A stretch of DNA of 64,000 nt from Candidatus Polarisedimenticolia bacterium (GTDB taxonomy: Bacteria; Acidobacteriota; Polarisedimenticolia; JACPZX01; DASXTC01), in contig JBOGOC010000110.1 of assembly GCA_050747525.1 (NCBI GenBank), forward strand, positions 17,303-81,302. Direction: 5' to 3'. Position numbers and translations under genes: made by a program. The notes under the pieces were generated by a model that was not told the origin of the DNA, made no database searches, and saw nothing but the letters and a program-made list of their open reading frames with translations. Shown here piece by piece: positions 2 to 55,617 of this stretch (position 1 is the first letter of the stretch; each line of letters opens with the position of its first letter).

Positions 2-280
2 ATTGTCGCCAGTCGAGAACGCCTCGTCGACCTCGAGGCGGACCTGGCAGCGTTTCCCCGACCCCGTACCGGATCGCCATGGCCCATGGCGCTCCTCTCG
101 GACGCCGGCGGAGAACGGCTCCGCGGCGCGGGCATCCTCGTCCTCGACTCTCACTCCTCTCCGGGATCCACCCGGCTGACGCCCCGGCTGAACCTGCTCG
201 CCGCATCGCTCGCCACCGACGTCGAGACCACCACAGGCGTCTGGGTGCGTCGAATCGATCTCGACAATCCCGGCCGATAG
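2..280 (+). CDS. Partial CDS (5' end outside the window): C-terminal extracytoplasmic domain of a membrane Ser/Thr kinase paralog
   Basis: Frame-2 translation IVASRERLVDLEADLAAFPRPRTGSPWPMALLSDAGGERLRGAGILVLD...RLNLLAASLATDVETTTGVWVRRIDLDNPGR* aligns residue-by-residue with the C-terminus of the kinase at 37387..39075 (FLIVASRERLFDLESDLEAFPRPRAGSPLSMALLSPSAGERLRGAGILVVD...RIELDNPGR*). It is followed by the same downstream motif. Confidence 0.6.
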   Translation: MVASRERLVDLEADLAAFPRPRTGSPWPMALLSDAGGERLRGAGILVLDSHSSPGSTRLTPRLNLLAASLATDVETTTGVWVRRIDLDNPGR

Positions 281-285
281 TCACA

Positions 286-335
286 GCTCCTCCTGTTCAT
301 CGAGCCTCCCTCCGGTGTTATCCATCTTCGAAGGG
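286..335 (+). promoter_or_regulatory. Conserved promoter-like motif, copy 1 (TGTTCA -N18- [TG]TTATCC with a conserved leader cttcgaagg)
   Basis: cctcctgttcatcgagcctccctccggtgttatccatcttcgaaggga lies ~65 nt upstream of the start at 397. The same architecture is found at 9190 and 39090. Confidence 0.5.
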
Positions 336-396
336 ACGCCCGGATCGAGATAACGCGATCCCCCACCGCGTAGTCGTGGGGGCTGGAGGAGGCTCG

Positions 397-6688: not shown

Positions 6689-8527
6689 ATGGACATGCGA
6701 TGCTTTCTTATCTGCTCAGTGACCCTCGCGATCGCGTTCGGCCAGCCAATGTTCGCGCAGGGCGCTCCAGCGCTGCTCTCGTATCAGGGGCAGCTCACGA
6801 ACGCCGTCGGCGCCCCCATCACGAGTCCGACGCCGGTGCGTTTCACCCTGCTGTGGGGCGGCACGGCGAACGAGATCCCGTCCACCGGCAAGCCGGTGTA
6901 CCAGGAGGACGTCACCGTCGCACCCGACGGGGAAGGGGTGTTCCATCACCTGATCGGTGCCGGAACGCCCACCTCCGGGTGCGACGAGAACCGGGACGGC
7001 ACCGCGAACGAGCCGTGCGTCCTGACGCCTTCCGACTTTTCCGACTCGGTCACTGCGGTGTACCTCGAACTACGTGTGGATCCCGGTGGCACGAATAACG
7101 TTCTGGTGCCACGGCAGCGGACAGCAAGCGTGGGCTATGCGCTGGAAGCGGATACTCTCGATGGTCAGCATGCCACTGGGTTGGCCGACACTCTCGATTC
7201 CGCCTACCACCGCGGCGGCGCCGGGGCGGGCCGCACCATTGTCGCGGACTCGGGCGCTGTGAGCATCGCCGGCTCGGACGGTCTGACCGTGAACGGCAGC
7301 GTCGGAATCGGCACCACTACGCCCGCCAGCAAGCTACAGGTGTCGAGCGGAGCAGGTACAACGGAACTACGCATCACGAATACGGCTGCTCCAGTAGATG
7401 GTGTCGTGCGTACGGGTCTGCCCGGTGGCATCGCCAGCATGCAACTCGGCACGCTAACGTTGCATGACCTTGCCCTTGCGGCTGGCAACGCTACGCGGGT
7501 GACGATTAACGCAAGTTCCGGCAACGTCGGAATCGGCACTGCGACGCCGGGTGAAAAGCTTACCGTTGCGGGCACCATCCGCTCGACGAGCGGCGGGTAC
7601 AGATTCCCGGACGGTACAGTCCAAGGCTCGGCGGCCTCGCCCATCAATGGCATTCGTACACCACTTCAAATTGCGCTGTTGCGTTGGTACGAGTCCAACC
7701 AGGGGCCAGCAAGGTTCAGTTTTCCGGGTGGCATGTACGGAGGAAGCTCGGTCGCCTTCGACGGAGACCACATGTGGGTGGTTCTTGACCTCTTCAACAG
7801 GGTGCTCAAGTTGCGGGCCAGCGATGGGGCGCAGGTCGGCAACTTTGCGACCGGAGCCGGGGCGACCGCCGCGTCCTTTGATGGGGCCAACATCTGGGTG
7901 GCCAACTCTGACGCCGACAGCGTGACCAAGTTGCGAGCCAGCGATGGGGCATCACTCGGCACGTTCGCGGTCGGCGATGATCCGCGGGCCGTGACCTTCG
8001 ACGGTGCAAACGTCTGGGTGGGAAACTGGGCCAGCGACTCCTTGACCAAGCTTCGTGCCAGCGATGGAGTATCCCTCGGTACGTTCGCGGTCGGTGACGG
8101 CCCGGAGGGTCTATGCTTCGACGGGGCGAACATCTGGGTGACGAACTTCAATAGCGACAACGTGACGAAGATACGGGCCAGTGACGGATCGTTGCTGGGC
8201 ACATTCGGCGTCGGAAACGGTCCGCGGGGATTGGCCTTCGATGGCGCCAACATCTGGATCGCGAACTTTTTCGGTAGTGTAACGAAGCTACGTGCCAGCG
8301 ACGGAGCGCTGCTGGGAACCTTTCCGGCTGGCAGCAATCCGGCGGCCGTCGCTTTTGATGGTGCGAACATCTGGGTGGCCAACCAATCCAGCAACGTTGT
8401 AACCAAGCTGCAAGCGAGCGACGGAGCGCCGCTGGGAACCTTTCCGGCTGGGGAACTACCACAGGCGATCGCCTTCGATGGAGCCAACTTTTGGGTCGTC
8501 GGCTGGTATTACGTGTCGAAGCTGTAA
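6689..8527 (+). CDS. Secreted protein: N-terminal tail-collar-associated domain, tail-fibre-like G-rich repeats, then a 6-bladed NHL/YVTN-like beta-propeller
   Basis: AGGAGG at 6680-6685 followed by ATGs at 6689 and 6695. Signal peptide MDMRCFLICSVTLAIAFGQPMFAQG. N-domain LLSYQGQLTNAVGAPITSP is homologous to the N-termini of the tail-collar proteins at 44420 and 45384. Repeats SGNVGIGTATPGEKLTVAG. Six repeats LRASDGxxLGTFxVGxxPxxxxFDGANIWVxN. Confidence 0.7.
   Translation: MDMRCFLICSVTLAIAFGQPMFAQGAPALLSYQGQLTNAVGAPITSPTPVRFTLLWGGTANEIPSTGKPVYQEDVTVAPDGEGVFHHLIGAGTPTSGCDENRDGTANEPCVLTPSDFSDSVTAVYLELRVDPGGTNNVLVPRQRTASVGYALEADTLDGQHATGLADTLDSAYHRGGAGAGRTIVADSGAVSIAGSDGLTVNGSVGIGTTTPASKLQVSSGAGTTELRITNTAAPVDGVVRTGLPGGIASMQLGTLTLHDLALAAGNATRVTINASSGNVGIGTATPGEKLTVAGTIRSTSGGYRFPDGTVQGSAASPINGIRTPLQIALLRWYESNQGPARFSFPGGMYGGSSVAFDGDHMWVVLDLFNRVLKLRASDGAQVGNFATGAGATAASFDGANIWVANSDADSVTKLRASDGASLGTFAVGDDPRAVTFDGANVWVGNWASDSLTKLRASDGVSLGTFAVGDGPEGLCFDGANIWVTNFNSDNVTKIRASDGSLLGTFGVGNGPRGLAFDGANIWIANFFGSVTKLRASDGALLGTFPAGSNPAAVAFDGANIWVANQSSNVVTKLQASDGAPLGTFPAGELPQAIAFDGANFWVVGWYYVSKL
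7756..8515 (+). repeat. In-gene tandem DNA repeat, ~126-bp period, 6 copies, ~80% identity (encodes the NHL-type blades)
   Basis: Repeated units gtgaccaagttgcgagccagcgatggg...ttcgacgg.gcaaacatctgggtgg.caac are seen directly in the sequence. Confidence 0.7.
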
Positions 8528-8665
8528 ACGGGGCAGTGGGTGCCAAGTCAACCGAGAGTCGAGGCTGGAGTCGCTGGATGTTCCGCAACGGAGCGCTTCT
8601 TCCAGGACGTGATAACAGCGGGCGGGTTCGGGCCCGCAGCACCCTCCGCAGCTGGATAGGTTGTG

Positions 8666-8703
8666 GAAGCCCGGGCGCGGCCGGCCGGGGCTTCCTCCTT
8701 TCG
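8666..8703 (+). terminator. GC-rich hairpin, possible intrinsic terminator between the convergent NHL-protein gene and the tmRNA-like gene
   Basis: GGAAGCCCGG-gcgcggccgg-CCGGGGCTTCC forms an ~8-10 bp stem and is followed by tcctttc. It lies between a + gene end (8527) and a - RNA end (8847). The T-tract is weak. Confidence 0.3.
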
Positions 8704-8846
8704 GGGGACTCATTTCCACCAGCTTGGAGTTCCTATCCACCGCTGTCCGGCAGATATTGGCTTCGCCGAGCCGCGGATGTCGGTCCAGCCGCTCCTGGAA
8801 ACAGCGCGCGGCGAGGGCGATAGGGACGACGGTATCGCGGAATGAG

Positions 8847-9193
8847 TGGTGGAGGCGGCGGGAGTCGAACCGGCGCTGGCGGTCTGGGATGGCTTCCAGT
8901 TCACGCACCAGGCGCCGGATGCCGCATGGCCCGCTGGTGGCCAGATAGCGGCGCTTGCCGGAGTCACCATCCTCACGGGCGGAGGAGGAACCCAGGGATC
9001 GACACGCCGTATACTTCGTTCCTCTCCATAGATCGCACCTGAGGAGCCACCCCTTCCCAGCCATGCGGTCGCGTGGTGATCGACAAGCCGGAGCGCCCAC
9101 CTCGCCTGACGACGTGTTCATCACGCCGGACGGCGCCTCCACGGGGGACGCCTTCACCGGGGAGTCACCTGCGAGGTGAGACGGCGTCACCCC
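8847..9193 (-). ncRNA. ssrA: tmRNA (ssrA)-like gene, 347 nt; alternatively only a partial 3' (att-like) copy
   Basis: The minus-strand 3' end reads ...CCAGCGCCGGUUCGACUCCCGCCGCCUCCACCA. This is a tRNA-Ala-like T-arm plus acceptor with encoded CCA, near-identical to known tmRNA 3' termini (E. coli ...CGGGUUCAACUCCCGCCAGCUCCACCA). The complementary 5' acceptor strand GGGGGUG at 9193 (RC of caccccc) gives a G3.U70 pair and a GGGGnUGA start. Its length is typical for tmRNA. No protein gene occupies the interval. No canonical tag-peptide ORF ending in ..AA-stop could be identified, and the 5' D-analogue UUCGAC is not obvious. Confidence 0.45.
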
Positions 9194-9241
9194 CTCTCCT
9201 GTTCGTCGGGCCTAGGTCCGGTGTTATCCACCTTCGAATGG
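9190..9241 (+). promoter_or_regulatory. Conserved promoter-like motif, copy 2, upstream of the giant subtilase gene
   Basis: cccctctcctgttcgtcgggcctaggtccggtgttatccaccttcgaatgga. The spacing between TGTTCG and TTATCC is 18 nt, as in the other copies. It lies ~50 nt upstream of ATG 9286. Confidence 0.5.
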
Positions 9242-9285
9242 ACCTCTCGAAAGCACAGGCGACGGCCTCAACCGAGGAGCACGAG

Positions 9286-12200
9286 ATGCATGCGTTCCGA
9301 GCTGCAAGGGTGGTGAAAAGGCTGTTCTGGTCTGGCATCGCCTTTTCTATTGTCATCTCCATCACCTCGTGGACCAGCCCGGCACCTGGACGCGACGGCT
9401 CCGAGCGCCGGCCGCTCCCCACCGCGGGCGCCGACACCGAACATCCGGATGACGCTCTGACGGCCGAGGTGCGGTTCCTCGAGAAGGGCAGACGACAGCT
9501 CTACCCGCGCCCCGAGCCGACCTGGTGGCCGGTCAGCAACGCGGGGGGATTGAAGCCCTACGGTCACGTCCCCGCGAGCGACCTCGACTCCCCCTACACG
9601 CTGATCCTCCCCAACGGGAAGGGCTCCATTGACACACGGAAGCGGAGCTACCGCCACGATCTGCCGGCTGTCCTGCGTGGCGGCTCAGGGAAAGGCCACC
9701 GGCCGGGGCGCGGTCTCTACTACCTCGTCCAGTTCAGGCCGGAAGCGGCCGCCGGCAAGGTCTCCCTCAGCCTCCATGAGGACCTGAGGCGTCTGGGCGC
9801 CGAACCGATCGAGTACGTTCCGCACAACGGGTGGCTGGTGCGCATGGCAGGCGAGCAGGAGGCGGCGGGACTGGGGAAGGCGGGCATCTTCCAGTTCGTG
9901 AGTCCCTTCGAGCCGGCCGACAAGATCCACCCAGACACCGGACGCAAACCTCTTTTGAATCCGGAGCGTGCCAGCTCCGATCTCTTCGAAGTCATCGTCC
10001 GCGTGATGCCCGCCGAGGATGCGGAGGAAGTGGCCGCCACCGTGCGACGCGCGGGTGGTGAGGTCCTGCGGCTCGACCGCGACCCGCGCGGGAACACACT
10101 CATCTCGGCACGGCTGCGCAACAGCAGGCTGCTGGAGCTACTGGCGGACCCAGGTGTGATGGGACTCTGGGAATCGCCGGAGTACGTGCAGTTGGATCTG
10201 GCGCCGGCGGCCCAGATGGAGGTCGGTCGCATCCTGGATCCGCGCGATTTCGGCGACTTCATCCTGCCGTTCCGGCAGGCCGGCATCGATGGCGGCGGCA
10301 CCTATATCGGTCCCCCGGTCGACTTCACCATGCCCGGCGTCCCGGGAGCGCCGATCCCCTTCAGCTCGGCACTGGGCTTCTACGCAGGTCCGCCGCAGTT
10401 TCTCGGGGTGGCGGACAATGGCCTGACGCTGGACAGCCCGGCCTTCGCCCATGACAACTCGAACCCATGCCTCGCCCCGGGGGCCTGCGTCGACGGCGGG
10501 GGGTTCGCGGGCCTCGCAAATGTTGGGGTGTTTCATCGGAGAATCGAGGCTTACACCGAGGGTGACGACTTCGACCCGGGGGCCTCCGGCGACTTCCTCA
10601 CATGCGACGCGATCGGGTCGGGGGGGCGCACGCACGGAACCATTGTGACCGCCGCGGCTGCGGGCAACCCGAGCGGAGGCCTGTTCGGCCTGGGCCGATT
10701 CTACGATGACGTGGACGCGATCGGGCAGCACAGGGTCTTCTTCAACGACTCGCGCGAGACGGACCTGCCACTGGACGGACAGGCCCGCGGGGCGAGAGTC
10801 ATTTTCCAGGACATCGCGGTGACGCCGCCGGCTTCGCCACCGGCTTGTGCCGCGAACTTCCAGTCCGACGTGGACGCGGGTGCCCTTCCTTCCGATCGGC
10901 TCGAGGACATGGCGTACCGCTGCGACCTCTTCGGACCAGGATGCCCCGGCCCGCTCGACCCCCGGGGTGCGAAGGTGACGCTGTTCGCCTTCGGCAATCC
11001 GGTCAACTTCGACGATGCCGCCGGCAACGGCAACGGCGTCTATGGCGTGGGGGCCGACACGGTGGACGCGTTCCTCTTCCTGAACCGCAGGATTACGCAC
11101 GTCCAGGCCGTGGGCAACGACGGCGCCGATCCGGATGACGGCTCCGATATCGACCCGTTCGTCCCGGCGCTGGCCCCCGGAAGCATCCAGATCAACAGCC
11201 TGGCCACGGGGAAGAACGTGGTGACCGTGGGGGCCAACCACACCGACAGCATCGATCCGCTCGGCATGGGATTCGGCGCGGACCCATCCGAGTTCATCGC
11301 CAACTTCAGCAGCAAGGGGCCGGCGACCTTCGCCTCCGGACGCGGCGCCCCGCTGGTGGTGGCGCCTGGCTTCGACGTGGGCCAGGGGCTCAAAGGGCGG
11401 CGCTCCGACGACTACTTCATCTCTGCGGCGACGGTCCTGTCGCGCGACAACGGCAACGACATGCTCGGGGCGGACGAGGTGGAGAACTTCGTCGTCGAAG
11501 GGGCCGCGGGGACCTCGATCTCCGCGGGCCGCGTGGCTGGAGCGGCGCTGCTGATCCGCGACTACTTCGCCAAGGGGTTCTACCCGACCGGCGCGGCCAC
11601 TGCAGCGGACATAGTCCCCGACATCTCCGGGATGCTGGTGAAGGCGGTGCTGGTCAACAGCACCGATTTCTCCTCGCGCGGCCCTCTGATCGAGTCGTGC
11701 GAAGGACGCGGGCCGCTGATGTGTCCATCGGAGCAGGGCTACGGCAAGGTCGAGCTGGCCAATACCCTTCCGTTGCAGAACTACCGCGCGGAGCGGCGGC
11801 CCCCCTCGCCGACGAACGTGGCTCCGGTCACCAACGTCCCGCAGGCGCTGCTGGTCGCCGACGAGTATTTCGACGGCGGGATGCGCGGCACAGGGCCCGG
11901 CGGCAGCACGACCGGCATCGCCGTGGTTCCGGTCGGGGGGTCGGTGTCGTTCGACTTCTTCCGGCGCCACGGCAACGACCAGCTCAGAGTGAGCCTGGCC
12001 TGGTATGACGCCGTCGGAGAGCTGCTCGCGAACGACCTCAACCTGGAGGTCACCAGCGGCGACTACCAGACCTCGCTCGGGGGGGCTGGCATCTGCGGAC
12101 CGGTGGGCGGTGGCATACCCGCCGTCTGCGGCGATTGCACGATTGCCGCCAACTACCCGGGGGAGGCGCTCTATTTCGACCCCACGGGGGTGAACCCCTA

Positions 12201-15200
12201 CGTACAGATATTCCGAGGCAACCAGTTCCGCGCCTTTGACGGGCAGTTCTCCTATCGGGTCGAGTGCGACGCGGCCGGAGCGCCGGAACCACCGGCCGTC
12301 GCTCCCCAGAACGCCTTCGACGACACCAACCCCACCGAGTCGGTGATGCTGCACTACCTGGGGGATCCATTGGCCTTCGGGCAAACCAGAAGCGGGGGCG
12401 ACCACGGCCCCTATCGAGTCCGGGTGAGCTTCCCGGCCACGCCGGCATCGACACCCGTCCCTGATGCTCCCGTGATCCATCCGGGCCCCGATGGAGATCT
12501 GGACGCCGTTCCCGTCGCGGACGACACGATGCTGGCGTTCTCCGACGGGACCCCCTACATCGGAGCCGGGCCTGACGGGATCGCCGACACGGCGCCCGTT
12601 GCCGACGACATCGCGCTGATCCCGCTGGGAAGCTTCGGGCAGCCGTTCGCCCTGGTGGCCGCCGGGCCCGTCCTGGCCAACACGCCGACGGACCCTCGTG
12701 GCACCGCCCGGGTGAGCAGCGTGGTCGCTTTCAACAAGGATGTATTCGACTGCTCCGACGAATTGACCTTGCGCGTGGCCGACTGGAGCCTGCCGGTTCC
12801 GCCGGCGTCGAGCATCGGCGCGAACACCCTCGTGAACGTGCTCGATTCCACGGGAGCGATCGTGGACACCGAGGCGGGATTCACCTTCACCGTCGATCCC
12901 GGCTCCTCGGCGCTCCGAGTCTCGCGAGCCATGCACTACAACTCGTCGTCCCTCGACCTCGGAACTCCGGTGGTCGGCGGGCCCGTCCCCTTCAACAGCC
13001 TCCTGGAGGTCATGGAAGGCTGGACGCTCCAGGCCGTATACGACGATCCCACCCCCGTGGTGATGGTTGGGGGGAGGCCGATTCCTCTTGACGCCGTCAC
13101 CACCGCGCGGGTGAGGTGCCGGCCCTTCCTGGGCCCCACGCTCCTGACGCTGGAGGACGAGAACGCACGCCGCACCGTCATCTCGGGAGGGTGCGACGAG
13201 GGACGCGTCCGGCAGGCTCCCGGCGACCTCTTCCTGGACGCGGACGAGTCGGTGGTGTACCAGGTCGGCTTCGCGAACCACGGCCACGAGGCGCTCGAGG
13301 ACCTGCGCGCCACGCTCACCTGCGCGGATCCATTGCCCGGATTCCCGAACCCCTGCGCCTTCGTCACGATCGTGCGGGCGAACGCGGTTCTCGGGACGAT
13401 CCCTCCGGGCTCCGAGGGGGTCGCAGCCTGGACGCTCAAGATCGCTCCCACCGTCGTAACGCTCTTGGGGGGCCCGCCGGCGGATCTGGCCGTGGACCTC
13501 ACGGTGACCTTCTCGGCTCCAGAGCTCGCGGGCGTTGCCTTCACATTCCGCGAGGGGCTCCAGGCCGACATGGAGGTTCTGCGGTACAACACGGACTTCC
13601 CCGGCGGCGGCACTCGTGCCGCGGACTACGACAGGAACGGCGTGATCGCGACTCTGCCGCCCGGATCGGGGGCGCGCAACCGCGAACTGATGGAGTTCGA
13701 GCCCCTTGTCTTCGCCGGCAGTCCCAACGCGGGTCTGGCCGGCCTCATTCCCTGGCGCTTCGACTCCAACGCCGGTGGGTTCACCGCATTCCGTACAGGA
13801 ACCAGCAAGCCGGGGTTCCCTCAGAACGCCCTGGCCTGGTTCTACGGCACGGCAGGTGGCTGCGGCTGGCAGACCCAGAACAACGGAATCGTCGGTCTCA
13901 GCACCACTCTGCCCAAAGGCGTGTGGCACGCCGGCCACGGACCGGTCGGTACCTTCAGGGCGGCGGGCGCCTGTCCCGCCTATACCAATCCCAGCGATCC
14001 CCTGACCCGTCCCTTCACCGAGTTCATCCACGATGTCCTCCGATCTCCCGTCCTCTTCAAGATGAACCCCGGCACCGACGCCCGCGGCATGCCCCTCGAT
14101 CTGAGGATCGAGGCGATCGGATGGAATGAGAATCAGCATTTCGGAGATTCATCCACCGTCGCCTCGCTCGCCGTCGACACCAACATCATGGATGATGGCC
14201 CGGTGGTTCTGGGAGATCCCTATGCAGAGAACATCCCCTTCGTCACGAGCGGACCAAGGCTCAATGCGGCCCACTCCCAGCGAACCTTCGGGCCCCTGCG
14301 CGACAGCGACAACTCTCTCCCCGGAAAGGGCGGTGCGAACGGAGACGAGGTGGGCGTCGCGGAGCCGCTCGTACAAGGGAGCGAGTTCAACTTCATCGAG
14401 CGCAGGCTGCTTGCCTATCCAGCGGTAGACGCGGATGCAAACATTCGTGGCTTCCAGAGCAGAACGGCGGTTGACGGGGTCGGCCACAGCACGCCCTGGG
14501 GGCCGGTCCGCAACCGCGACTCCAACGCCAGCGGGAGCGAGATCGTCGATTTCGGCGGCAGCTTCGAGGACTTCTACGGCGCCTCGGGGGATGCCTTCCA
14601 GTTCGAGTTCGGGTGGACGCTGTTCGAGGGTGGGGTAGGAGCCCGGGGATGGACCATCGACGATCCCTACATCGAGTGGTCCGAGCAGCATGCGGTCGAC
14701 CAGGCGCCGGGGAGCGTCAACGACTGCTCGGAGATCCCGTTTCGACCCGGCTCCGACCCGGCCTCCAGCCAGTGCGCCGTCGTCTCCTTTGAGAGGCTGA
14801 CCCTTCACGAGTGCACGGAAGGAGTCATCGTGACGGTCATTGATGGGACGACCGCCTCGACGGTGGGAACCATGGGATGCCCGATCGGGCAGGTGCCGGT
14901 CCTGCTTCGCAGCGCCGGCGAGCCGGCCGGGGAGATCTTCTGCCTAGCCCCGCGGGGAGGCGGCAACTTCAACAATACCGTCTCGCTGAGCGGTCTGTCC
15001 GATCAACCCGGATTCCTCTTCGTCAATCCGGCCGACGGCCAGAACGCGAGCATCGAGGCAATCTACCGGGATCCCGAGTGTGACCGGGACCATGACGGCG
15101 TTCTCGGTGAGAACGATCCCGTCGATGTCGACGGCGACGGTGTACCCAACTTCGGCGCCGATGGAGTCTTCGGCGACTCCGATCCCGCGGCGCTGCTGGC

Positions 15201-18200
15201 CGGAGGAGAGGGAGCCTCTGACGACGACAACTGCTTCGACCCGGTCAAGCTGATCGATATCTTCAACCCGCCGGGCGTGCCGCAGATGGATCTGGCTCCG
15301 CCCGTGGGGATCACGCCGGCCGACTGCGTCCCGTCGCCCACTAATGGCCAGTGCGACTTCGATGACGACGGCAGGGGCGATCTGTGCGACAACTGCCCAT
15401 CCACGCCCAACCACAAGCAGCTCGACACGGACGGCGACGGCGTCGGGGACTCCTGCGAAGTGAGCGACATCGACGTGGACGGCGTTGTCAACGACATCGA
15501 CAACTGTCCGACCGTGCCGAATCCGGCCCAGGCACCCGGCGCGGGCGGAAGGGGCGCCGTCTGCGATGCCGCTGCGGACATGGACAGCGACGGGGTCGCC
15601 GAGGTGACCGACAACTGTCCGAACGAGGGAGCTTTTCCCATCTCGACCACCTACAACCCGGCGCAGGAGGATCACGACGGGGACGGAGTCGGCGACCGGT
15701 GCGATTCCGACGATTTCGACGGGGACGGCGCGATGAACTCCGCCGACTCCTGCCCGACGGTGTTCAACGTGGTCGATCCGGCCCTCAGGACGCAGGCCGA
15801 CTCGGACCGCGACGGGCGGGGCGACGACCGCGGTGGCATCGATGCGACCGCCGGTCCCGCGAACTACTGCGATCCTGACCAGGACGACGACGACGGCAGT
15901 GGCGCTCCGGATGACCTGGTGGGGTTCTCCGCGTCGGTGCGGTGCAACTTCAACCAGTTCGGCATCAACAACGCGGCCGGACCCCAGGCGGCCGTGGGCT
16001 CTCTGGTGCTGGAGGGGTTCACCATCACCGACGATGGGGCAGCCGATGGAGGGGTCCCCGACGGAATCGCCGATCCCGGCGAGCTGGTCTCGGTGACTCT
16101 CACGCTCCGCAACGCCTCGCTGGATCGCGGGACGGGACTCCCGCGTCCTCTGACCAATCTGATGGTCGGGATCAAGCCTCTGACTCCTTCGATCTCGAGC
16201 GTGCCGCTGTCCGAGGTCTCCATCGGGTTGCTTGCGGGTATGGGCACCGTCACGACGCCCCCCGGCGGCCTCAGCTTCATCGTCAATCCGGCACTCCCGG
16301 GACCCGGCCAGTCGGTGCCGGGCCATCCCGCCCAGGCGGAGTTCCTGGTGACGGCGCAGGCAAAGGAGATGACGGGGATCGCCCCGGAGCAGAAGTTCCG
16401 CATCTTCGTCGATCTGGACGTGGCCCACGCGGGGCTCGCCCCCGCGGCGTGTCCCGGCATCCCGGCGATGGCGGGTCCCGGGGTTCTCTGTGAGAACTTC
16501 GACACCGATCTCAACGGAAGCCTGGCACTCGATCCCTGGACCCGCTTGCCGATCGGTCTCGATGCCGCCGATCCTCAGAACAGAGCGTTGCAGGATCCCG
16601 CGGACGACATCATCGGATACGCACAGGGAACCGGGTCAGGCTCCGCCTTCAACACGAATGCGAGGCTCTGCTCCTCGGACAAGGCCGCCGGCGCGCCCGC
16701 GACCTGTCAGGCGGTCGCGGAGGAGAACGACTGGCACCTGCATTCGCCCGTGAACGGTCCTGGCGCCGGATATGCGCCGGGGGCTCCCCCCGCGATCGGC
16801 GCGCCCGACGGGGGCAAGGCGCACAGCGGCGTGCAGTCGCTTCACTTCGGCCGGCACCTCGACCCCGCGTCGACGCTGTCCGACACGACGCGATACCGGC
16901 AGGCGGCCGCCTATGTCCTGGACATGGATCCCCCCCTGGTCCCCGGTCCGGCCAGCAGGCTGGAGTTCTGGCACATCATCCAGATGCCTGACGACGACTC
17001 GATCGGCGCGGAAGCGGGGACCTCGCTGGGAGGCGGCCAGGTCCAGGTCAGTGTGAAGGAGGGCCCCGCCGGCCTGTTCGGCAAGTGGCGAACGCTGACT
17101 CCTCTGTGCAACGGCTACAACTCGCTGGTGCAGGGGACCTACGCCGTTTGCCAGTTCGATCCGGGCGACGACGGCTCGCTCGACATGGACGAGACGATGT
17201 GCAACGGTCAGCCGGTGTGGTCCGATATCGGCGACGTGCAGGCCACGGCATCGGTGTGCGGAGGCGACAGCGACGGCAACGGTCAGGACGATTGCGGGGA
17301 GATCGCGAGCACTGTATGTCCCGCCCTGCCGGGCGGAGTTCCGGACACAGTCTCTCTCGGCTCGACAGGCACCGGCGTGTGGGCACGCTCCCAGGTCGAT
17401 CTGTCGCCATTCGCAGGTCGAGAAGTGCGGCTGCGCTGGATCGCCACGACAGCGGGCGGGTGGGACTTCGGCAGGGACCGCTCCGCGCTGGAACCTGAAA
17501 CCGGCCCGGCCAGCCAGTACTATGAAGCAGACGACGGCTGGTGGATCGACAATATCGTCCTGACGGGCCTCCTGGTGGCGCCCTCGGCCTTCGCTCCTGA
17601 CCCGGCAGCCGGTCCGTTTGCGCTGACCGGCCCGCAGTCCGGTGAACCGGACTTTCTGGTTGGCTCAGCGGCCGGCCTGGCGCCACAGGATCCGGCCAAT
17701 TGCGGCGTCGTCACGCTGAACCTGGCGAACTCGATCCCCTATGGCAGCAACCGGCTCTTGAGCAGCGAGGGGCCGGGACGCCACATCCAGCTCGATGCGT
17801 TCCAGTCCGCCGCCGGCGATGACCCGAACACGCAGGCCGTCGAGGGCCGGTGTGAGCGAGGATTGCTGGAGTTCCAGTTCAGCCAGCTCGGCCCGACCGG
17901 CTCGGTGGTCGAGGTCATCAAGGAGTTCTCGCCGGCGCGCGTCGCGAACGTGCGGCCCGCGGCAGACACGATGTACCGCCTGGCCGGGCGCTGCTCCTCG
18001 GATCTCGCCTGCGCGGCCAGCCAGGACGTCCTCGTCAAGCTGTACACGGGAGACGGATCGGACCTGAACCCTGCGCCCGGTGAGTTCGGCCTCGAGGTCA
18101 CGGGCGGGGCCACGGCTACCCTGCAGTGGCCCTCGCGGCCTCAACCTGCGGGGATCTCCGGCTACGATGTCTTCCGGTACGCCAGCGGCACCAACACCGG

Positions 18201-18441
18201 CGTGGATGTGTTCTCCGGCGGGACTTTCGACGGCGCCTGCGTGGCCAGCGCGGTGCCCAACGTGGCTCTGCCTGGTATGGTGACGTGGACGGATGCCACC
18301 GTTCCGCCTGTCGGCACGGCCTTCATGTACCAGGTGGGCCATTCGTCATTGGTCACTGTCGCGATTGCGCCTCTGGGTGTGGGCCAGGTCGGAGACTTCC
18401 GGGCCGGCCAACTGAAGAGGGCTGGAGTGACCTGTCCGTAA
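9286..18441 (+). CDS. Giant (~3050 aa) secreted S8 subtilisin-like serine protease with long extensions and TSP3-type calcium-binding repeats
   Basis: ATG 9286 follows GAGGAG. Signal/TM segment MHAFRAARVVKRLFWSGIAFSIVISITSWTSPAPG. Subtilase His motif HGTIVTAAAAGN and Ser motif GTSISAGRVAGAALL. TSP3 repeats CDNCPSTPNHKQLDTDGDGVGDSCE, DNCPTVPNPAQ, DHDGDGVGDRCDSDDFDGDG around 15360-15800. The ORF track starts the open frame at 9073, but that region overlaps the tmRNA-like gene, and the RBS and signal peptide support 9286. Confidence 0.8.
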   Translation: MHAFRAARVVKRLFWSGIAFSIVISITSWTSPAPGRDGSERRPLPTAGADTEHPDDALTAEVRFLEKGRRQLYPRPEPTWWPVSNAGGLKPYGHVPASDLDSPYTLILPNGKGSIDTRKRSYRHDLPAVLRGGSGKGHRPGRGLYYLVQFRPEAAAGKVSLSLHEDLRRLGAEPIEYVPHNGWLVRMAGEQEAAGLGKAGIFQFVSPFEPADKIHPDTGRKPLLNPERASSDLFEVIVRVMPAEDAEEVAATVRRAGGEVLRLDRDPRGNTLISARLRNSRLLELLADPGVMGLWESPEYVQLDLAPAAQMEVGRILDPRDFGDFILPFRQAGIDGGGTYIGPPVDFTMPGVPGAPIPFSSALGFYAGPPQFLGVADNGLTLDSPAFAHDNSNPCLAPGACVDGGGFAGLANVGVFHRRIEAYTEGDDFDPGASGDFLTCDAIGSGGRTHGTIVTAAAAGNPSGGLFGLGRFYDDVDAIGQHRVFFNDSRETDLPLDGQARGARVIFQDIAVTPPASPPACAANFQSDVDAGALPSDRLEDMAYRCDLFGPGCPGPLDPRGAKVTLFAFGNPVNFDDAAGNGNGVYGVGADTVDAFLFLNRRITHVQAVGNDGADPDDGSDIDPFVPALAPGSIQINSLATGKNVVTVGANHTDSIDPLGMGFGADPSEFIANFSSKGPATFASGRGAPLVVAPGFDVGQGLKGRRSDDYFISAATVLSRDNGNDMLGADEVENFVVEGAAGTSISAGRVAGAALLIRDYFAKGFYPTGAATAADIVPDISGMLVKAVLVNSTDFSSRGPLIESCEGRGPLMCPSEQGYGKVELANTLPLQNYRAERRPPSPTNVAPVTNVPQALLVADEYFDGGMRGTGPGGSTTGIAVVPVGGSVSFDFFRRHGNDQLRVSLAWYDAVGELLANDLNLEVTSGDYQTSLGGAGICGPVGGGIPAVCGDCTIAANYPGEALYFDPTGVNPYVQIFRGNQFRAFDGQFSYRVECDAAGAPEPPAVAPQNAFDDTNPTESVMLHYLGDPLAFGQTRSGGDHGPYRVRVSFPATPASTPVPDAPVIHPGPDGDLDAVPVADDTMLAFSDGTPYIGAGPDGIADTAPVADDIALIPLGSFGQPFALVAAGPVLANTPTDPRGTARVSSVVAFNKDVFDCSDELTLRVADWSLPVPPASSIGANTLVNVLDSTGAIVDTEAGFTFTVDPGSSALRVSRAMHYNSSSLDLGTPVVGGPVPFNSLLEVMEGWTLQAVYDDPTPVVMVGGRPIPLDAVTTARVRCRPFLGPTLLTLEDENARRTVISGGCDEGRVRQAPGDLFLDADESVVYQVGFANHGHEALEDLRATLTCADPLPGFPNPCAFVTIVRANAVLGTIPPGSEGVAAWTLKIAPTVVTLLGGPPADLAVDLTVTFSAPELAGVAFTFREGLQADMEVLRYNTDFPGGGTRAADYDRNGVIATLPPGSGARNRELMEFEPLVFAGSPNAGLAGLIPWRFDSNAGGFTAFRTGTSKPGFPQNALAWFYGTAGGCGWQTQNNGIVGLSTTLPKGVWHAGHGPVGTFRAAGACPAYTNPSDPLTRPFTEFIHDVLRSPVLFKMNPGTDARGMPLDLRIEAIGWNENQHFGDSSTVASLAVDTNIMDDGPVVLGDPYAENIPFVTSGPRLNAAHSQRTFGPLRDSDNSLPGKGGANGDEVGVAEPLVQGSEFNFIERRLLAYPAVDADANIRGFQSRTAVDGVGHSTPWGPVRNRDSNASGSEIVDFGGSFEDFYGASGDAFQFEFGWTLFEGGVGARGWTIDDPYIEWSEQHAVDQAPGSVNDCSEIPFRPGSDPASSQCAVVSFERLTLHECTEGVIVTVIDGTTASTVGTMGCPIGQVPVLLRSAGEPAGEIFCLAPRGGGNFNNTVSLSGLSDQPGFLFVNPADGQNASIEAIYRDPECDRDHDGVLGENDPVDVDGDGVPNFGADGVFGDSDPAALLAGGEGASDDDNCFDPVKLIDIFNPPGVPQMDLAPPVGITPADCVPSPTNGQCDFDDDGRGDLCDNCPSTPNHKQLDTDGDGVGDSCEVSDIDVDGVVNDIDNCPTVPNPAQAPGAGGRGAVCDAAADMDSDGVAEVTDNCPNEGAFPISTTYNPAQEDHDGDGVGDRCDSDDFDGDGAMNSADSCPTVFNVVDPALRTQADSDRDGRGDDRGGIDATAGPANYCDPDQDDDDGSGAPDDLVGFSASVRCNFNQFGINNAAGPQAAVGSLVLEGFTITDDGAADGGVPDGIADPGELVSVTLTLRNASLDRGTGLPRPLTNLMVGIKPLTPSISSVPLSEVSIGLLAGMGTVTTPPGGLSFIVNPALPGPGQSVPGHPAQAEFLVTAQAKEMTGIAPEQKFRIFVDLDVAHAGLAPAACPGIPAMAGPGVLCENFDTDLNGSLALDPWTRLPIGLDAADPQNRALQDPADDIIGYAQGTGSGSAFNTNARLCSSDKAAGAPATCQAVAEENDWHLHSPVNGPGAGYAPGAPPAIGAPDGGKAHSGVQSLHFGRHLDPASTLSDTTRYRQAAAYVLDMDPPLVPGPASRLEFWHIIQMPDDDSIGAEAGTSLGGGQVQVSVKEGPAGLFGKWRTLTPLCNGYNSLVQGTYAVCQFDPGDDGSLDMDETMCNGQPVWSDIGDVQATASVCGGDSDGNGQDDCGEIASTVCPALPGGVPDTVSLGSTGTGVWARSQVDLSPFAGREVRLRWIATTAGGWDFGRDRSALEPETGPASQYYEADDGWWIDNIVLTGLLVAPSAFAPDPAAGPFALTGPQSGEPDFLVGSAAGLAPQDPANCGVVTLNLANSIPYGSNRLLSSEGPGRHIQLDAFQSAAGDDPNTQAVEGRCERGLLEFQFSQLGPTGSVVEVIKEFSPARVANVRPAADTMYRLAGRCSSDLACAASQDVLVKLYTGDGSDLNPAPGEFGLEVTGGATATLQWPSRPQPAGISGYDVFRYASGTNTGVDVFSGGTFDGACVASAVPNVALPGMVTWTDATVPPVGTAFMYQVGHSSLVTVAIAPLGVGQVGDFRAGQLKRAGVTCP

Positions 18442-18543
18442 CGGCACGCATCTCCTCAATGCAGGACGCGCTTGAAGAGCGCGGCTTAAGGAGTTCGGTC
18501 TATTGGACGAGGAGCACACGAGATTCTGGCGATAGGTGATGCG

Positions 18544-18685
18544 CTGTGACGGTTCTGTGACGGAACGCCCGCCTAAGCCACCCAACTCCGGCCTAAACCG
18601 CCTCACCTAAGTCGTTGCTCTACTTGACCGGCTCGTCTGGCGTGGTGTCCGGCTTCGCGTTCGATTCCCACACGCTTCCGCCAGG
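18544..18685 (+). repeat. Dispersed ~160-bp repeat element, copy A
   Basis: ctgtgacggttctgtgacggaacgcc...cccaactccggcctaaac...cctaagtcgttgctctacttgaccggctcgtctggcgtggtgtccgg...cgttcgattcccacacgcttccgccagg shares 85-90% identity with the copies at 21340, 28537 and 46386. Confidence 0.75.
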
Positions 18686-18869
18686 ATCGCCCGTCGTAGG
18701 AACAGGGTGTTTCGTATGCTGGTCATGCGGGGAATCTGGGCGGGCCGGACGTCAACGGCGGCGCGCCCGAGCGAAGATCGTGTGACCGATCGGCAGCCGG
18801 CCCAGTAGCGTGTCGTCAGCGCCGGAAGCGGACCCTGTTCACGGAGCCGGGACCCCCTGGCGGCCGCCG

Positions 18870-21191: not shown

Positions 21192-21339
21192 GTCGCCGAG
21201 ACTCCTCGGTCAGTGATTCTACGACACGGGTCGCATGGCGCCGGCCGCGGTCTCTTGACGTGCCCGTCAGGAAGGAGGCTCCACCATGTCCACCATGGGC
21301 AGGCGACCAACGAGGTGAACTTCATGATGCAGAAGTTCA

Positions 21340-21500
21340 CTGTGCCGGTTCTGTGACGGAACTCCAGCCGAACCCACCCAACTCCAGCCTAAACGACCGG
21401 GCCTAAGTCGTTGCTCTACTTGATCGGCTCGTCTGGCAGGATGTCCGGGATCGCCTTCGATTCCCACACGCTTCCGCCAGGGCTCCCTGCAGCATCAGGC
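21340..21500 (+). repeat. Dispersed ~160-bp repeat element, copy B
   Basis: ctgtgccggttctgtgacggaactccagccgaacccacccaactccagcctaaac...ttcgattcccacacgcttccgccagggctccctgcagcatcaggc. It is preceded by the hairpin gtgaacttcatgatgcagaagttcac. It is in direct orientation with copies A and C. Confidence 0.75.
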
Positions 21501-21614: not shown

Positions 21615-24041
21615 CTACCGCAACGACCAAACTTCGATGGCGCCCCCGGAGACGTCTATCATGGGGCCGGTCGTGGACCCTGGGGGTGGCACAGAAATAT
21701 CGATTCTGCCAATCGTTGCAGTGCTTCCATCGGAGTAGCGCACTCTGAACTCGTAGCTCACTTCCTTCAGCAGCTCGTGCCCGCGCCACGTCGCTCGTGG
21801 ATAGCTCTCCGCGCTGGCTGTGAGCACGATCGTGGCACCTTCATTGCTCGCGAGATCCCGGAGCTCGCGCAGGCGTGCTTCGGCTGTGCGGCTTTGGAAA
21901 ACCTGGTTCACTTCACGGGGGGCATACATGATTCCTTCACGAGCCTCGTCACCGAAACCAGGGCCCCAGAGGTGTGCTCTCTCGTAGTCGGGAAGTCCGA
22001 TTTCCCGGGAGGTTGGCAGATCCACGTTGAAGTTCGGTACTCGGGGATCGCGCCGATCCCCTAGAGAAGGCCCCAGTTCTCCTTCGATTCTGAATTTGAT
22101 GGTCCCATCCGGATCCCGATGGGCCCAGATCTCCTTGATGAGACCTGTTCCGGCAGTATCCCCTGATAGGGCCACATTCGTGCTGCGTAGCCTGGGCCCT
22201 CTCCCGGAGGCTGCTGGATCGGGCGAGGCCTGTTCTCGACCGGAGGCAGCCCGCTGGCGCCGTGCCTCGGATCTGCCCCGTGGTGGTCGCTGCGTGGGCT
22301 CGCGCTCGCTCCGCCTTCCGGAGACCATCGTGTCGGCAGCTCTCGCTGACGGACCGTGCGTCGACGGATCCACCGCACCCGCGATCGGGCGCGCTTGCCG
22401 CGTCTCGGCTGCGCCTGACGCCGGGCGGTCGGTGTTCCCCTGGCTTGCTGGACGACGTGGTCGTCGCTCCCGGGAGCCGGCAGTCATCGGGGATTCCTGC
22501 CTCTCCGCCGTGCGCGACCCGGTGGAGGGCAAAGCCTCGGAAGGTGCCGCTGGCCGAGCCCCCAGCCTCGGCTCGTCCCCGACGCCAGCGGGGCGCTGGA
22601 GTCGCGCCTCCCCGGTGCCGGGAATGGGCCGATCGACCGCCCGCTCTGCCGTACGCAGGCCCTGAAGGCTCGGTCGCGGGGTTCGGCCCCTCGCTGCTCG
22701 CAGAAGAACGCGCTGAGTGAATTCAGTGCGCAGGAATCTGCGGGCGACGGGTCCCAGCATCGCGGGGAGAAGTATCGATGCCGCCAGAAGACCGACATCG
22801 GCGGTGATGTCCACCATCTCGCCGCTCGCGGGCCCCTCCGCGACACGAAGACCCTCATCGACAAGCGCGGTGCGATTCATGAGATTCCGTTGCGTCTCCG
22901 CGGACGCTGCGAATCCATACTCGACTCCGGTCTGAATCCCCAGCATCACGGCCCCGACCACTCCCGCCACGAGAGGCGATGCGAGCCCTCCTGAGACAGC
23001 CGTGACGACGAGCCCGGCTGCAAGCACCAGCACCCTGACATTCTCCAGAGCCCCCCATCTCTCTGTGAGTTCCGGGAAAAGCTCCTCAGCGAGCTCCTTC
23101 AGCGGTTCGGACTCCGCGAAGGCCGCTCCTACGTCATTTCGGAACGTAACGTCCGCCAACCTCAGCACGGGGCGCAGGTTCTCCCAGTTCTCCTGGCCTC
23201 TCAGAATCTCGTCGAGTCTCCCCCGGAAAGCAGCCACGCCTGCTCGCAGGAACACCACGATTTCATTGACGAGGCTACGGAGGTACCGGTTCCTCAGCTC
23301 GGTCGGGGCTCTCAAGACATCGTAGAGCGCCTGAGGGGTTGCGAATCTTCGGACCAGGACCAGGATTGGATGGCCCCCGAGCTCCTCGTCGAGGAGCAGG
23401 GAACGCAACTCGAAGTCATTGTTGGTCTTGACGAGGGCCACGCGTGCCAGGATGAAGTCCTGGTCCCGAGACTCTCGTGGCGACTCTCCCCAGCGGTACC
23501 AGATGAGATGGCGGACAGGGGGTTGAGCCGGCCCATAGGCCTGGGTCCCTGCATCTCGTTCGGGCGGACCGCCAGGCGGCAGCGCTGGGGTGGGTGGCAA
23601 CGCCGGCGGAGGCAACGCCGATTCCGGCACTGCGTACGGCGCGCTCGAGGTGAACACCAGCCAGCTCGCAAGGCAGCGCGCAAGGCTCCCCAGCTCCTGT
23701 TCGGCGGGCGGAGTGGCCTCACCCTCTCTTCGCCGTCCGCGGTAGCGCCAGTTGATGTGGCCCCAGAGCGAGGTCATCAAGCGAAGCTGAAACTCGCCCA
23801 TCTCGACAGCCGACGCTTGAAGCCATGCCTTGAATAGGGCGCGGTCCTCTTCGTGCCGAGGGCTTAGAAACGCCAGTCCCCCTGGCCCCGCGTCAGGGTA
23901 TGTCCGCCGAAACTGATCGAAGGCCCTCGGGATCGTACCGTGAGGATCCGAGGACACACCGCCTCGCGCCCTCCACAAGAGACGATAGGAACGGTCAGCG
24001 TGGTGTAGCCTCCGCAGGACTTCTCTGGGCTCGTCTGACAT
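21615..24041 (-). CDS. Hypothetical 808-aa protein: N-terminal domain, two TM helices, a disordered R/P-rich linker and a C-terminal ~190-aa toxin-like domain
   Basis: Long ORF with coding-like composition. TM segments VLVLAAGLVVTAVSGGLASPLVAGVVGAVMLGI and LLAASILLPAMLG. Low-complexity linker RQESPMTAGSRERRPRRPASQGNTDRP... C-terminal block LPDYERAHLWGPGFGDEAREGIMYAPREVNQVF...IVLTASAESYPRATWRGHELLKEVSYEFRV. No confident family assignment. Confidence 0.55.
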   Translation of the reverse strand: MSDEPREVLRRLHHADRSYRLLWRARGGVSSDPHGTIPRAFDQFRRTYPDAGPGGLAFLSPRHEEDRALFKAWLQASAVEMGEFQLRLMTSLWGHINWRYRGRRREGEATPPAEQELGSLARCLASWLVFTSSAPYAVPESALPPPALPPTPALPPGGPPERDAGTQAYGPAQPPVRHLIWYRWGESPRESRDQDFILARVALVKTNNDFELRSLLLDEELGGHPILVLVRRFATPQALYDVLRAPTELRNRYLRSLVNEIVVFLRAGVAAFRGRLDEILRGQENWENLRPVLRLADVTFRNDVGAAFAESEPLKELAEELFPELTERWGALENVRVLVLAAGLVVTAVSGGLASPLVAGVVGAVMLGIQTGVEYGFAASAETQRNLMNRTALVDEGLRVAEGPASGEMVDITADVGLLAASILLPAMLGPVARRFLRTEFTQRVLLRAARGRTPRPSLQGLRTAERAVDRPIPGTGEARLQRPAGVGDEPRLGARPAAPSEALPSTGSRTAERQESPMTAGSRERRPRRPASQGNTDRPASGAAETRQARPIAGAVDPSTHGPSARAADTMVSGRRSEREPTQRPPRGRSEARRQRAASGREQASPDPAASGRGPRLRSTNVALSGDTAGTGLIKEIWAHRDPDGTIKFRIEGELGPSLGDRRDPRVPNFNVDLPTSREIGLPDYERAHLWGPGFGDEAREGIMYAPREVNQVFQSRTAEARLRELRDLASNEGATIVLTASAESYPRATWRGHELLKEVSYEFRVRYSDGSTATIGRIDISVPPPGSTTGPMIDVSGGAIEVWSLR

Positions 24042-28200: not shown

Positions 28201-28536
28201 GTGCGGCTGGCCGTGGTCTCGCGTCTCGCGTGGATCCTCCGCAAGCGGAGGGCGTTCGTGGAGCAGGCTCGCCAGTCGCAACGAGAGACAGTCACGGGCG
28301 AGAGTCAATACTTCCAGGGGCGCCGTTACCTGCCCTACGTGATTGAAGTGGCCAAATCACCTTCCGTCCGTCTGGCCGGCCACAACACGATGGAACTGCG
28401 GGTTCGCCCGGGCAGCGACCGACAGGCCCGCGAGGCCGTCCTTCAGGGATGGTATCGACGTGGCCTGCGCGAGCAGGCAACGACGCTTCTTGCCAAGTGG
28501 GGGCCGAAGATCGGCGTGACTGTTTCTGAGGTGGGA
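28201..28536 (+). pseudogene. Truncated DUF45/YgjP-like (WLM-type metal-dependent hydrolase) gene fragment, interrupted by repeat copy C
   Basis: Translation ...RRYLPYVIEVAKSPSVRLAGHNTMELRVRPGSDRQAREAVLQGWYRRGLREQATTLLAKWGPKIGVTVSEV matches the YgjP family middle region (..WYRRqA....v..wa.rlGl....vrvr). The expected RWGSC/HExxH part is replaced by the repeat sequence beginning ctgtgccggttctgtga at 28537. The N-terminus overlaps the upstream minus-strand gene. Confidence 0.45.
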
Positions 28537-28697
28537 CTGTGCCGGTTCTGTGATGGAACACCAGCCGAACCCACCCCACTCCAGCCCAAATTTCCTCGCC
28601 TAAGTCGTTGCTCTATTTGACCGACTCGTCTGGCGTGGTGTCCGGAATCGCGTTCGATTCCCACACGCTTCCGCCAGGGCTCCCTGCAGCATCAGGC
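28537..28697 (+). repeat. Dispersed ~160-bp repeat element, copy C, followed by a second partial start motif (ctgtgccggttctg) at ~28722
   Basis: ctgtgccggttctgtgatggaacaccagccgaacccaccccactccagcccaaat...cctaagtcgttgctctatttgaccgactcgtctggcgtggtgtccggaatcgcgttcgattcccacacgcttccgccagggctccctgcagcatcaggc. Confidence 0.75.
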
Positions 28698-54605: not shown

Positions 54606-54831
54606 CGTCTCCTGTTCGGTTTTGTCTGAAAACGTCGCGACTGTTTACAGGAACGGACCGACCCTGTCAAGCGGATATTACGGCAAGTCCACCATTCACG
54701 CCGCCGGAATCAGTCGTATTCGATCAACAAACGGGTCGCTTTGTGCGAGCTGTTGTCCCTGTCCTCGTGGCTCTTGACGCGGCACCGCGTATGCCTTGAT
54801 GATTGGACCTTGTTCTCATCTGGAGGAGGCA

Positions 54832-55617
54832 ATGACGCGCACAACAGGACGTCGGTTCATGTTACCCGGGCTGGCCGGAATCGCCATGCTGGCCGCTTCA
54901 TCCCAGGCGCTGTTTGCCCAGACCGATCACTTCAAGTGCTATCAGACCCAGGAGCTGTTCGTCGAGCAGGCCAGGGACGCCGAGCTGACGGACGCCTTCG
55001 GGGGCGATCCGGAGGTCCGCATTCACAACGCGGCCTGGTTCTGCAACCCGGTTTCAAAGGCCGTCGGAGAGGAGGCGCCCACCCCCATCACCGAGCCGGC
55101 CAACCATCTGACTCTTTATCCGCTCTCGAACACCAACCCCTCGCCGCTGCATCGCGTCACCATCGACAACCAGTTCGGGACCCGCGAGCTCGTGATCACG
55201 TCGCCGCGGCTGGTGGCGGTGCCCACCCGCAAGGACGACGAGCCCGACCCGCAGGGGATCAGCCATTTCAAATGCCATCAGGCGAGCGGGCGGCCCGTCC
55301 ACGTGAGGGCCACGCTGGCCGACCAGTTCCAGACCGAGTCGGCGAGAATCCTGCAGCCGCGCTATCTTTGCAATCCGGCCACCAAGACGCTGGAGGGAGT
55401 GACCACCGCTCCGGAGCCAGGAGAAGCTTCTCTGACCTGCTACACGATTGCCCCGGGCGGTCCCCCGCCGGTCGACTTCATCGACTTCGACAACCAGATC
55501 GGCGCCCCGGACACCATGAGGCTCGGTCCGTCCAACTTCTTGTGCGTGCCTACCACCGTGGCCAGCGGGGAAGAGGCGGCGACCGATCGCCGTTACCTGC
55601 GGGACCAGCGGAAATGA
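54832..55617 (+). CDS. Secreted protein with three ~85-aa repeats (HFKCYQ-type), immediately upstream of and translationally coupled to the VgrG-like gene
   Basis: GGAGGAGG before ATG 54832. Signal peptide MTRTTGRRFMLPGLAGIAMLAASSQALFAQ. Repeats DHFKCYQTQ / SHFKCHQAS / ASLTCYTIAP. The stop TGA overlaps the next ATG (ATGA). Confidence 0.6.
   Translation: MTRTTGRRFMLPGLAGIAMLAASSQALFAQTDHFKCYQTQELFVEQARDAELTDAFGGDPEVRIHNAAWFCNPVSKAVGEEAPTPITEPANHLTLYPLSNTNPSPLHRVTIDNQFGTRELVITSPRLVAVPTRKDDEPDPQGISHFKCHQASGRPVHVRATLADQFQTESARILQPRYLCNPATKTLEGVTTAPEPGEASLTCYTIAPGGPPPVDFIDFDNQIGAPDTMRLGPSNFLCVPTTVASGEEAATDRRYLRDQRK

Follow-up and report, generated by a model that had tools for sequence, protein, structure and literature searches.

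A copy of the ssrA 3' end without a tmRNA gene: a probable att-type fragment inside a selC island array of a Polarisedimenticolia bacterium

Results

The window, by which we mean the whole 64,000-nt stretch of DNA that was analysed, comes from an Acidobacteriota metagenome-assembled genome (MAG) of the class Candidatus Polarisedimenticolia, and its first 45 kb are dominated by giant secreted proteins with FG-GAP, TSP3, Kelch, cohesin, and subtilase domains. The feature under study is a short block on the minus strand, located in a 760-bp gap between the genes of a 610-aa repeat protein (6695-8527) and a 3051-aa subtilase (9286-18441), both of which are on the plus strand. The 610-aa protein has no Pfam domain and carries six 120-nt (40-aa) repeats at 7756-8504 (plus strand), each ending in ...FDGANIWV.N, that resemble beta-propeller blades. 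For the C-terminal half of this protein, soil and sediment metagenomes yielded at least 274 relatives of ~50% identity; these are not syntenic with the window and do not carry the block. Further along, six to seven tandem 213-nt repeats at 30052-31416 (plus strand, gene 29058-33125) correspond to FG-GAP blades of a 1355-aa protein. At 54741-57158 and 57522-59582 (both plus strand), a VgrG-like protein (Phage_GPD plus Phage_base_V) adjoins a GAF-GAF sigma-54 activator (GenBank MGH9870411.1).

An intact tRNA-Sec gene (selC) is located on the plus strand ~900 nt before window position 1, at 8607-8704 of the corresponding locus in GCA_974107545.1 (L324). It scores 76.6 bits and is also called by ARAGORN. 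A truncated tyrosine integrase of 200 aa, comprising the catalytic half only (Pfam Phage_integrase, E = 3.7e-12), abuts selC, and the core genes mreC, mreB, a SurA-like gene, and a tRNA-Ala gene were found only to its left. The 3' end of selC, TTCGATTCCCACACGCTTCCGCCA, recurs in the window as three exact 24-nt repeats on the plus strand, with 0 expected, and the 162-nt arms around these repeats are 80–100% conserved. As these three repeats and their arms show, the window begins within three selC islands arranged in tandem (Table 1). With its intact tRNA-Sec, the integrase beside it, and the direct repeats downstream in the same orientation, the locus is a proven hot spot of integration. Island 1 holds the block, which follows selC and precedes the first selC repeat and is thereby embedded in horizontally acquired DNA; it is on the strand opposite to selC and is not itself a selC repeat.

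Neither island 2 nor island 3 carries its own integrase. In island 3, an 808-aa protein (21615-24041, minus strand) has a C-terminal Ntox4 toxin domain (E = 1.8e-20) and is followed by unannotated ORFs of 956 aa and 358 aa; this region is polymorphic-toxin cargo within the selC island. The window has two other public copies (L001 and L002), both identical to it; L001, like L324, represents the locus in GCA_974107545.1. L002, a Logan contig, stops at window position 18684, at the first selC repeat.

Table 1. Features of the block, its surroundings, and the selC array, in window coordinates
Feature	Position	Strand	Remarks
ssrA 3'-end copy, exact	8847..8871	-	unique in window; RF00023 local match; tmRNA profile E = 1.3e-5
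Identity break	8872..8874	-	GCC vs GCG in true tmRNA genes
GGGGGUG, proposed 5' acceptor strand	9188..9194	-	can pair with CGCCUCC, at chance level
58-nt promoter/leader-like motif, copy 2	9186..9243	+	~45 nt upstream of giant subtilase ATG at 9286
58-nt motif, copy 1	280-337	+	~60 nt upstream of gene starting at 397
244-aa ORF through block	8456..9190	-	annotated hypothetical protein in GCA_974107545.1
selC 3'-end repeat 1	18660..18683	+	right end of island 1 (holds the ssrA block); arm 18543-18704
selC 3'-end repeat 2	21456..21479	+	right end of island 2; arm 21339-21500
selC 3'-end repeat 3	28653..28676	+	right end of island 3; arm 28536-28697

Read on the minus strand, the block is GGTTCGACTCCCGCCGCCTCCACCA, 25 nt in length. 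It consists of the last two T-stem bases, the T-loop UUCGACU, the 3' T-stem CCCGC, the acceptor 3' strand CGCCUCC, and an encoded ACCA, and it keeps the U70, discriminator A, and CCA of genuine tmRNA 3' ends. The same 25 bases, without a single difference, terminate at least 100 genuine tmRNA genes in Acidobacteriota, Desulfobacterota, and other phyla. Within the 64-kb window the block is single-copy, with 0 copies expected by chance, and dinucleotide-preserving shuffles gave zero matches to it even when 3 mismatches were allowed. Immediately upstream, GCC replaces GCG and so produces a C-C mismatch in the would-be T-stem; counting the T-stem, identity extends to 27 of 28 bases. The first-pass annotation had described the 3' end as a nearly perfect tmRNA terminus, and this description stands for CGCCUCC, ACCA, and the 25 matching bases but not for the mismatched T-stem.

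A second copy of the block was not found in the window, even at 8 mismatches in 28 positions, and no arm-type repeats were found in the window or in the 760-bp gap. Two other sources of the block were considered and set aside. The neighbouring tRNA-Ala(GGC) gene matches it at only 20 of 25 positions. The selC block differs in sequence and is on the opposite strand, with only the generic T-loop common to both.

The exact 25-mer was searched for in one genome per species, which yielded at least 120 DNA stretches. In 100 of the 121 genomic occurrences listed, it forms the 3' end of a bona fide tmRNA gene with the canonical GACGCG before it. In most of the listed stretches, the 25-mer is the exact terminus of a standard tmRNA gene called by ARAGORN, and the tags of these genes are ordinary (e.g., ANNNLALAA and ADDYNYAVAA). 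None of the 121 listed occurrences falls inside a tRNA gene, and many of the listed carriers belong to the Acidobacteriota, the phylum of the host. A chance origin of the block is excluded, given that the same 25-mer ends the tmRNA gene in those 100 occurrences. The block is therefore ssrA-derived: it matches tmRNA ends exactly, it is never seen in tRNA genes among the listed occurrences, and many of its carriers are Acidobacteriota. No conserved gene neighbour of ssrA was identified in the Acidobacteriota.

In 20 of the 121 listed occurrences (~ 1 in 6), the 25-mer stands without a tmRNA body. Identity to ssrA in these 20 orphans breaks 0–5 nt upstream of the 25-mer, and for seven of them the break is at 0 nt, as in the window. 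In one locus (L062), a tmRNA gene is followed 3.9 kb downstream by an orphan of the same orientation, and an AbiEi gene separates the two; in another (L035), AbiEi/AbiEii genes are directly upstream of the orphan. Further orphans adjoin Fic, a Mrr-type nuclease, a nucleotidyltransferase, or weak integrase matches. We take these contexts to be the ends of small islands.

The exact block was also found in more than 120 viral contigs. In two proviruses, UViG_3300045988_031979 (L221/L278) and _090522 (L217/L242), it occurs near both contig ends; in these IMGVR proviruses of 35–42 kb, the pair of blocks has the look of a textbook attL/attR. Many viral contigs of sample 3300045988 have the flanks GTTTCGGTTGCG / block / ATGAAAAAACCT in common. 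Among the fetched loci, a sequence-motif filter picked out 41 ORFs near the block (within 2.5 kb) as candidate tyrosine recombinases. Of these candidates, 26 are downstream on the opposite strand, and those listed are separated from the block by 150–190 nt, the arrangement usual for attL-int.

Neither the 64-kb window nor the 9.6 kb left of it contains a tmRNA gene, and an HMM built from the 41 ssrA-adjacent integrases detected no ssrA-type integrase in the window. When the selC-side integrase was compared with the ssrA loci by tblastn, nothing matched. Throughout the 81 kb examined, an intact ssrA, a partner repeat, and a cognate integrase were all absent. An integrase near the block had been named at first pass as something to look for; a truncated one exists, but it belongs to the selC site ~10 kb away and not to ssrA. 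A plasmid search with the region gave no match, and no homologues of 8847-9194 were found in other genomes.

Both ARAGORN and Infernal (RF00023), the programs that the first-pass annotation had proposed, were run, and neither produced a tmRNA model at the locus. With default settings, ARAGORN reported 0 tRNA or tmRNA genes in the 64 kb. Relaxing its thresholds to 90, 80, and 70% returned only implausible permuted calls on both strands, and no standard tmRNA spanning 8847-9194. At the Rfam gathering thresholds there was no match (47 bits for RF00023). In permissive mode, RF00023 scored 17.1 bits against these 47 (E = 1.8e-4) over a span of 8847-8934. Of this span, only the terminal 29 nt form a true alignment; 328 positions of the model are passed over, and mismatches occur in both the acceptor and the T-stem pairs.

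Comparison with true tmRNA genes confined the similarity to the same short segment. An nhmmer profile built from 85 true tmRNAs sharing the 3' end of the block matched the window solely at 8871-8847 (model positions 328–352), and nothing in 8872-9194 matched at E ≤ 100. In a blastn search of the 760-bp gap against 120 ssrA loci, similarity was limited to ~30 nt (8845-8875). True genes read ...GGAC GCGGG UUCGACU CCCGC, whereas the window reads ...CAGC GCCGG at the corresponding place. GGAC precedes the T-arm in 100 of 100 true genes and is replaced here by CAGC, and the T-stem GCCGG/CCCGC contains the C-C mismatch where true genes have GCGGG. Helix 2, the mRNA-like region, and the pseudoknots of a tmRNA body were not recovered by nhmmer or blastn.

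A tag reading frame is absent as well, which agrees with the statement made at first pass that no standard tag ORF could be found. The 348-nt RNA folds no better than its shuffles (z = -1.76), and in the minimum free energy (MFE) fold neither the acceptor helix nor the T-arm is formed. The complete tRNA-like domain, with a 7-bp acceptor helix including G3-U70, a 5-bp T-stem, and GGAC, was not found, and neither a sigma-70-type promoter nor a terminator was detected for a minus-strand gene. The region 8847-9194 is predicted to make no working tmRNA transcript.

The first-pass annotation had paired the 3' end with a 5' partner, GGGGGUG at 9193, in a molecule of 347 nt. The heptamer exists and G3-U70 can be drawn with it, but it runs from 9194 to 9188, which makes the molecule 348 nt, and its occurrence is at chance level. 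Heptamers able to pair with CGCCUCC arise at 8.3e-4 per position, giving a ~12% chance of one in a 150-nt range, and a second possible partner, GGAGGCG, is present at 9140. In the MFE fold, GGGGGUG is not paired with the 3' end. The overlap of this proposed 5' end with a repeated promoter motif, also claimed at first pass, was confirmed. The two copies of the 58-nt motif are 81% identical, with the consensus GTCAC...CCGGTGTTATCCAyCTTCGAAkGGAC. The plus-strand genes downstream are those for 189-aa and 1894-aa proteins at copy 1 and for the 3051-aa subtilase at copy 2, and the motif is likely a shared promoter or leader element. Since GGGGGUG is inside a motif repeated upstream of two plus-strand genes, it is explained by another element; the bases equivalent to it differ in copy 1.

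An ORF of 244 aa passes through the block on the minus strand. It has no homologues beyond itself and no Pfam or PHROG match at E ≤ 10, and its codon-usage score is 0.04 per codon, compared to 0.36 for true genes. Codon usage is ambiguous here, as a plus-strand frame that contains stops outscores the ORF. The HMM of the 41 ssrA-adjacent integrases detected the selC-side integrase at E = 1.6e-4 and placed the 244-aa ORF at E = 170, rank 409 of 801. With no homologue, no domain, and this integrase score, the ORF was rejected as a real gene or integrase remnant.

The spacer shows a three-base GC periodicity in 8700-9000 (~0.5/0.7/0.8 by coordinate class), which fits either the frame of the minus-strand 244-aa ORF or a plus-strand frame with two stops. 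No homologues were found for either translation of this segment, and the spacer may be old, formerly coding, eroded DNA. A plus-strand pseudogene running across the block was also considered; it has no Pfam match and two in-frame stops, and was rejected. Elsewhere in the gap, a GC-rich 12-bp hairpin at 8665-8695 (plus strand; GGAAGCCCGGGC ... GCCGGGGCTTCC) is located ~140 nt past the stop of the 610-aa gene and is followed by TCCTTTC. It gave a spurious CRISPR-DR29 match in Rfam and is a possible weak terminator.

Discussion

We consider the block to be an orphan att-type fragment of an ssrA 3' end, a kind of feature that has already been described, and put the probability of this reading at roughly 75%. 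Integrases of ssrA-targeting phages and islands recombine at the segment of identity from the T-stem/T-loop to the CCA, and with every integration into ssrA, one copy of this segment remains at the distal boundary of the element. An integrase would have recombined attP with ssrA and so generated the 25-nt copy, as an attR or an attP remnant. Later accretion of islands, imprecise excision, or rearrangement would have moved or stranded this copy, leaving it as inert cargo, in inverted orientation, inside selC island 1. The identity with the target is exact from the T-arm to the gene end and breaks off as it does in the 20 orphans. The att-type 3' duplicate proposed at first pass is therefore favoured by the evidence, though its extent is 25 exact bases (27 of 28 with the T-stem) and not ~40.

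Our confidence is limited since the canonical triad is absent from the 81 kb and since identity to the ssrA of the host itself is inferred from other Acidobacteriota. Over that distance, we did not find an intact ssrA upstream of the block in the same orientation with an island between the two, nor a cognate integrase in the element, the truncated integrase abutting selC being the only one found. An att scar alone also leaves the GC periodicity in 8700-9000 unexplained.

Other explanations were weighed against these observations. The block could be the end of a divergent but functional one-piece tmRNA of ~348 nt (8847-9194, minus strand), as had been suggested at first pass, whose atypical 5' D-analogue and tag region escapes the models. 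Such a gene would account for the perfect 3' end, for a 7-bp acceptor helix including G3-U70 that can be drawn with GGGGGUG at 9194-9188, and for a length within the 344–383 nt range of true genes. Yet ARAGORN makes no standard call there at its 70% thresholds, the Rfam score is 17.1 versus 47 bits with 328 model positions deleted, and the tmRNA profile is blank between 8872 and 9194. GGAC is missing and the T-stem is mismatched, the MFE fold is without acceptor helix or T-arm, and no promoter was found. The 5' heptamer belongs to a motif repeated at 280-337 in which the equivalent bases are different and is not significant as a partner, there is no tag frame, and the interior has no homologues elsewhere. 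A functional tmRNA is close to refuted by these results, and we give it almost no credence. A decayed full-length ssrA pseudogene, with its body mutated beyond recognition and its 3' end intact, would likewise place a 5' partner at a tmRNA-like distance. Uniform decay is at odds with 25 of 25 intact bases beside ~320 bases without detectable similarity, and the sharp boundary coincides with that of the att-type orphans elsewhere, which makes the pseudo-copy raised at first pass extremely improbable.

The block might also be part of a real or former coding sequence, namely the 244-aa ORF, possibly an integrase remnant with its own attP core, with the likeness to ssrA being incidental. The integrase gene of Myxococcus phage Mx8 carries its own attP core. 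GC content by codon position (~0.7/0.5/0.8 in 8700-9000) fits the frame of this ORF, the public assembly calls it as a gene, and by eye its RRLHHSF...H...IC resembles the spacing of the tyrosine recombinase HxLRH...H...Y (box II). We nevertheless find a coding origin quite improbable: a match of 25 of 25 bases to ssrA cannot be incidental, the only homologue of the ORF is the ORF itself, Pfam and PHROG give nothing at E ≤ 10, the integrase HMM ranks it 409 of 801 (E = 170) though it detects the selC-side integrase (E = 1.6e-4), and the ambiguous codon score is exceeded by that of a stop-containing plus-strand frame. Another explanation sees a functional DNA site or small RNA here, either a secondary attB for ssrA-targeting elements or a tRNA-like minihelix RNA of ~88 nt (8847-8934). 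Both the crossover-proximal T-loop and the whole segment of identity are preserved, as such a site would need, and Infernal can draw an 88-nt tRNA-like shape. This shape has mismatches in 2 of 7 acceptor pairs and 1 of 5 T-stem pairs, no element is inserted at the block, and neither conservation in other genomes nor a promoter was found, so that a function of this kind appears unlikely.

More broadly, the block may be anything but inert: it could act as a secondary attB or module boundary, or be part of an alanine-charged minus-strand RNA, a proposal that we hold to be very improbable. Were it an attB, ssrA- and selC-targeting elements might exchange cargo through the block, and the subtilase segment would lie between two attR-type ends of different specificity whose island-side flanks face the segment. 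Were it an RNA, a molecule of ~88–350 nt with a tRNA-like CCA end would represent a minimal relative of tmRNA consisting of the tRNA-like domain only.

As an orphan att-type fragment, the block has a practical implication for annotators: even where the 3' end of a tmRNA is perfect, the gene may be missing, as the 20 orphans among the 121 listed occurrences illustrate. It also serves as a historical marker, in that DNA once recombined at ssrA is now in the selC array of a poorly known class, the Polarisedimenticolia, which suggests movement of island cargo from one integration hot spot to another. The fragment has no bearing on trans-translation, and the selC island array is more noteworthy than the block itself.

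Features of this kind have precedents. PMC3146451 states, citing Williams 2003, that integration of ssrA islands places a short repeat of the ssrA 3' end, in direct orientation, at their distal boundary, often in tandem arrays, and it describes tandem ssrA islands, insertion at the T-loop, and direct-repeat fragments of ssrA. Williams 2003, 'Traffic at the tmRNA gene', is cited there for ssrA-integrated islands and prophages. Fragments of the ssrA 3' end are listed among known false tmRNA calls (PMC4131195).

Compared with a one-piece tmRNA (RF00023; ssrA), the block is identical over the last 25 nt and differs in having no 5' tRNA-like half, helix 2, resume codon or tag, pseudoknots, or GGAC. 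Its surroundings are like those of tandem island arrays at tRNA genes, with a tRNA-Sec, a truncated integrase, and three 24-nt selC repeats around it; unlike the repeats of such arrays, the block is not a copy of the local target (selC) and is on the other strand. It differs from ssrA attR-type fragments in that no intact ssrA is upstream within 81 kb, no cognate integrase or partner repeat accompanies it, and it is inverted inside the array of a different site, selC. It is like these fragments in being a copy that runs from the T-arm to the CCA, without a tmRNA body, among horizontally acquired cargo. The closest parallel in form is with the Dehalococcoides ssrA islands of PMC3146451, in which the ssrA 3' end is likewise copied exactly over a short length, 20 bp there and 25 nt here.
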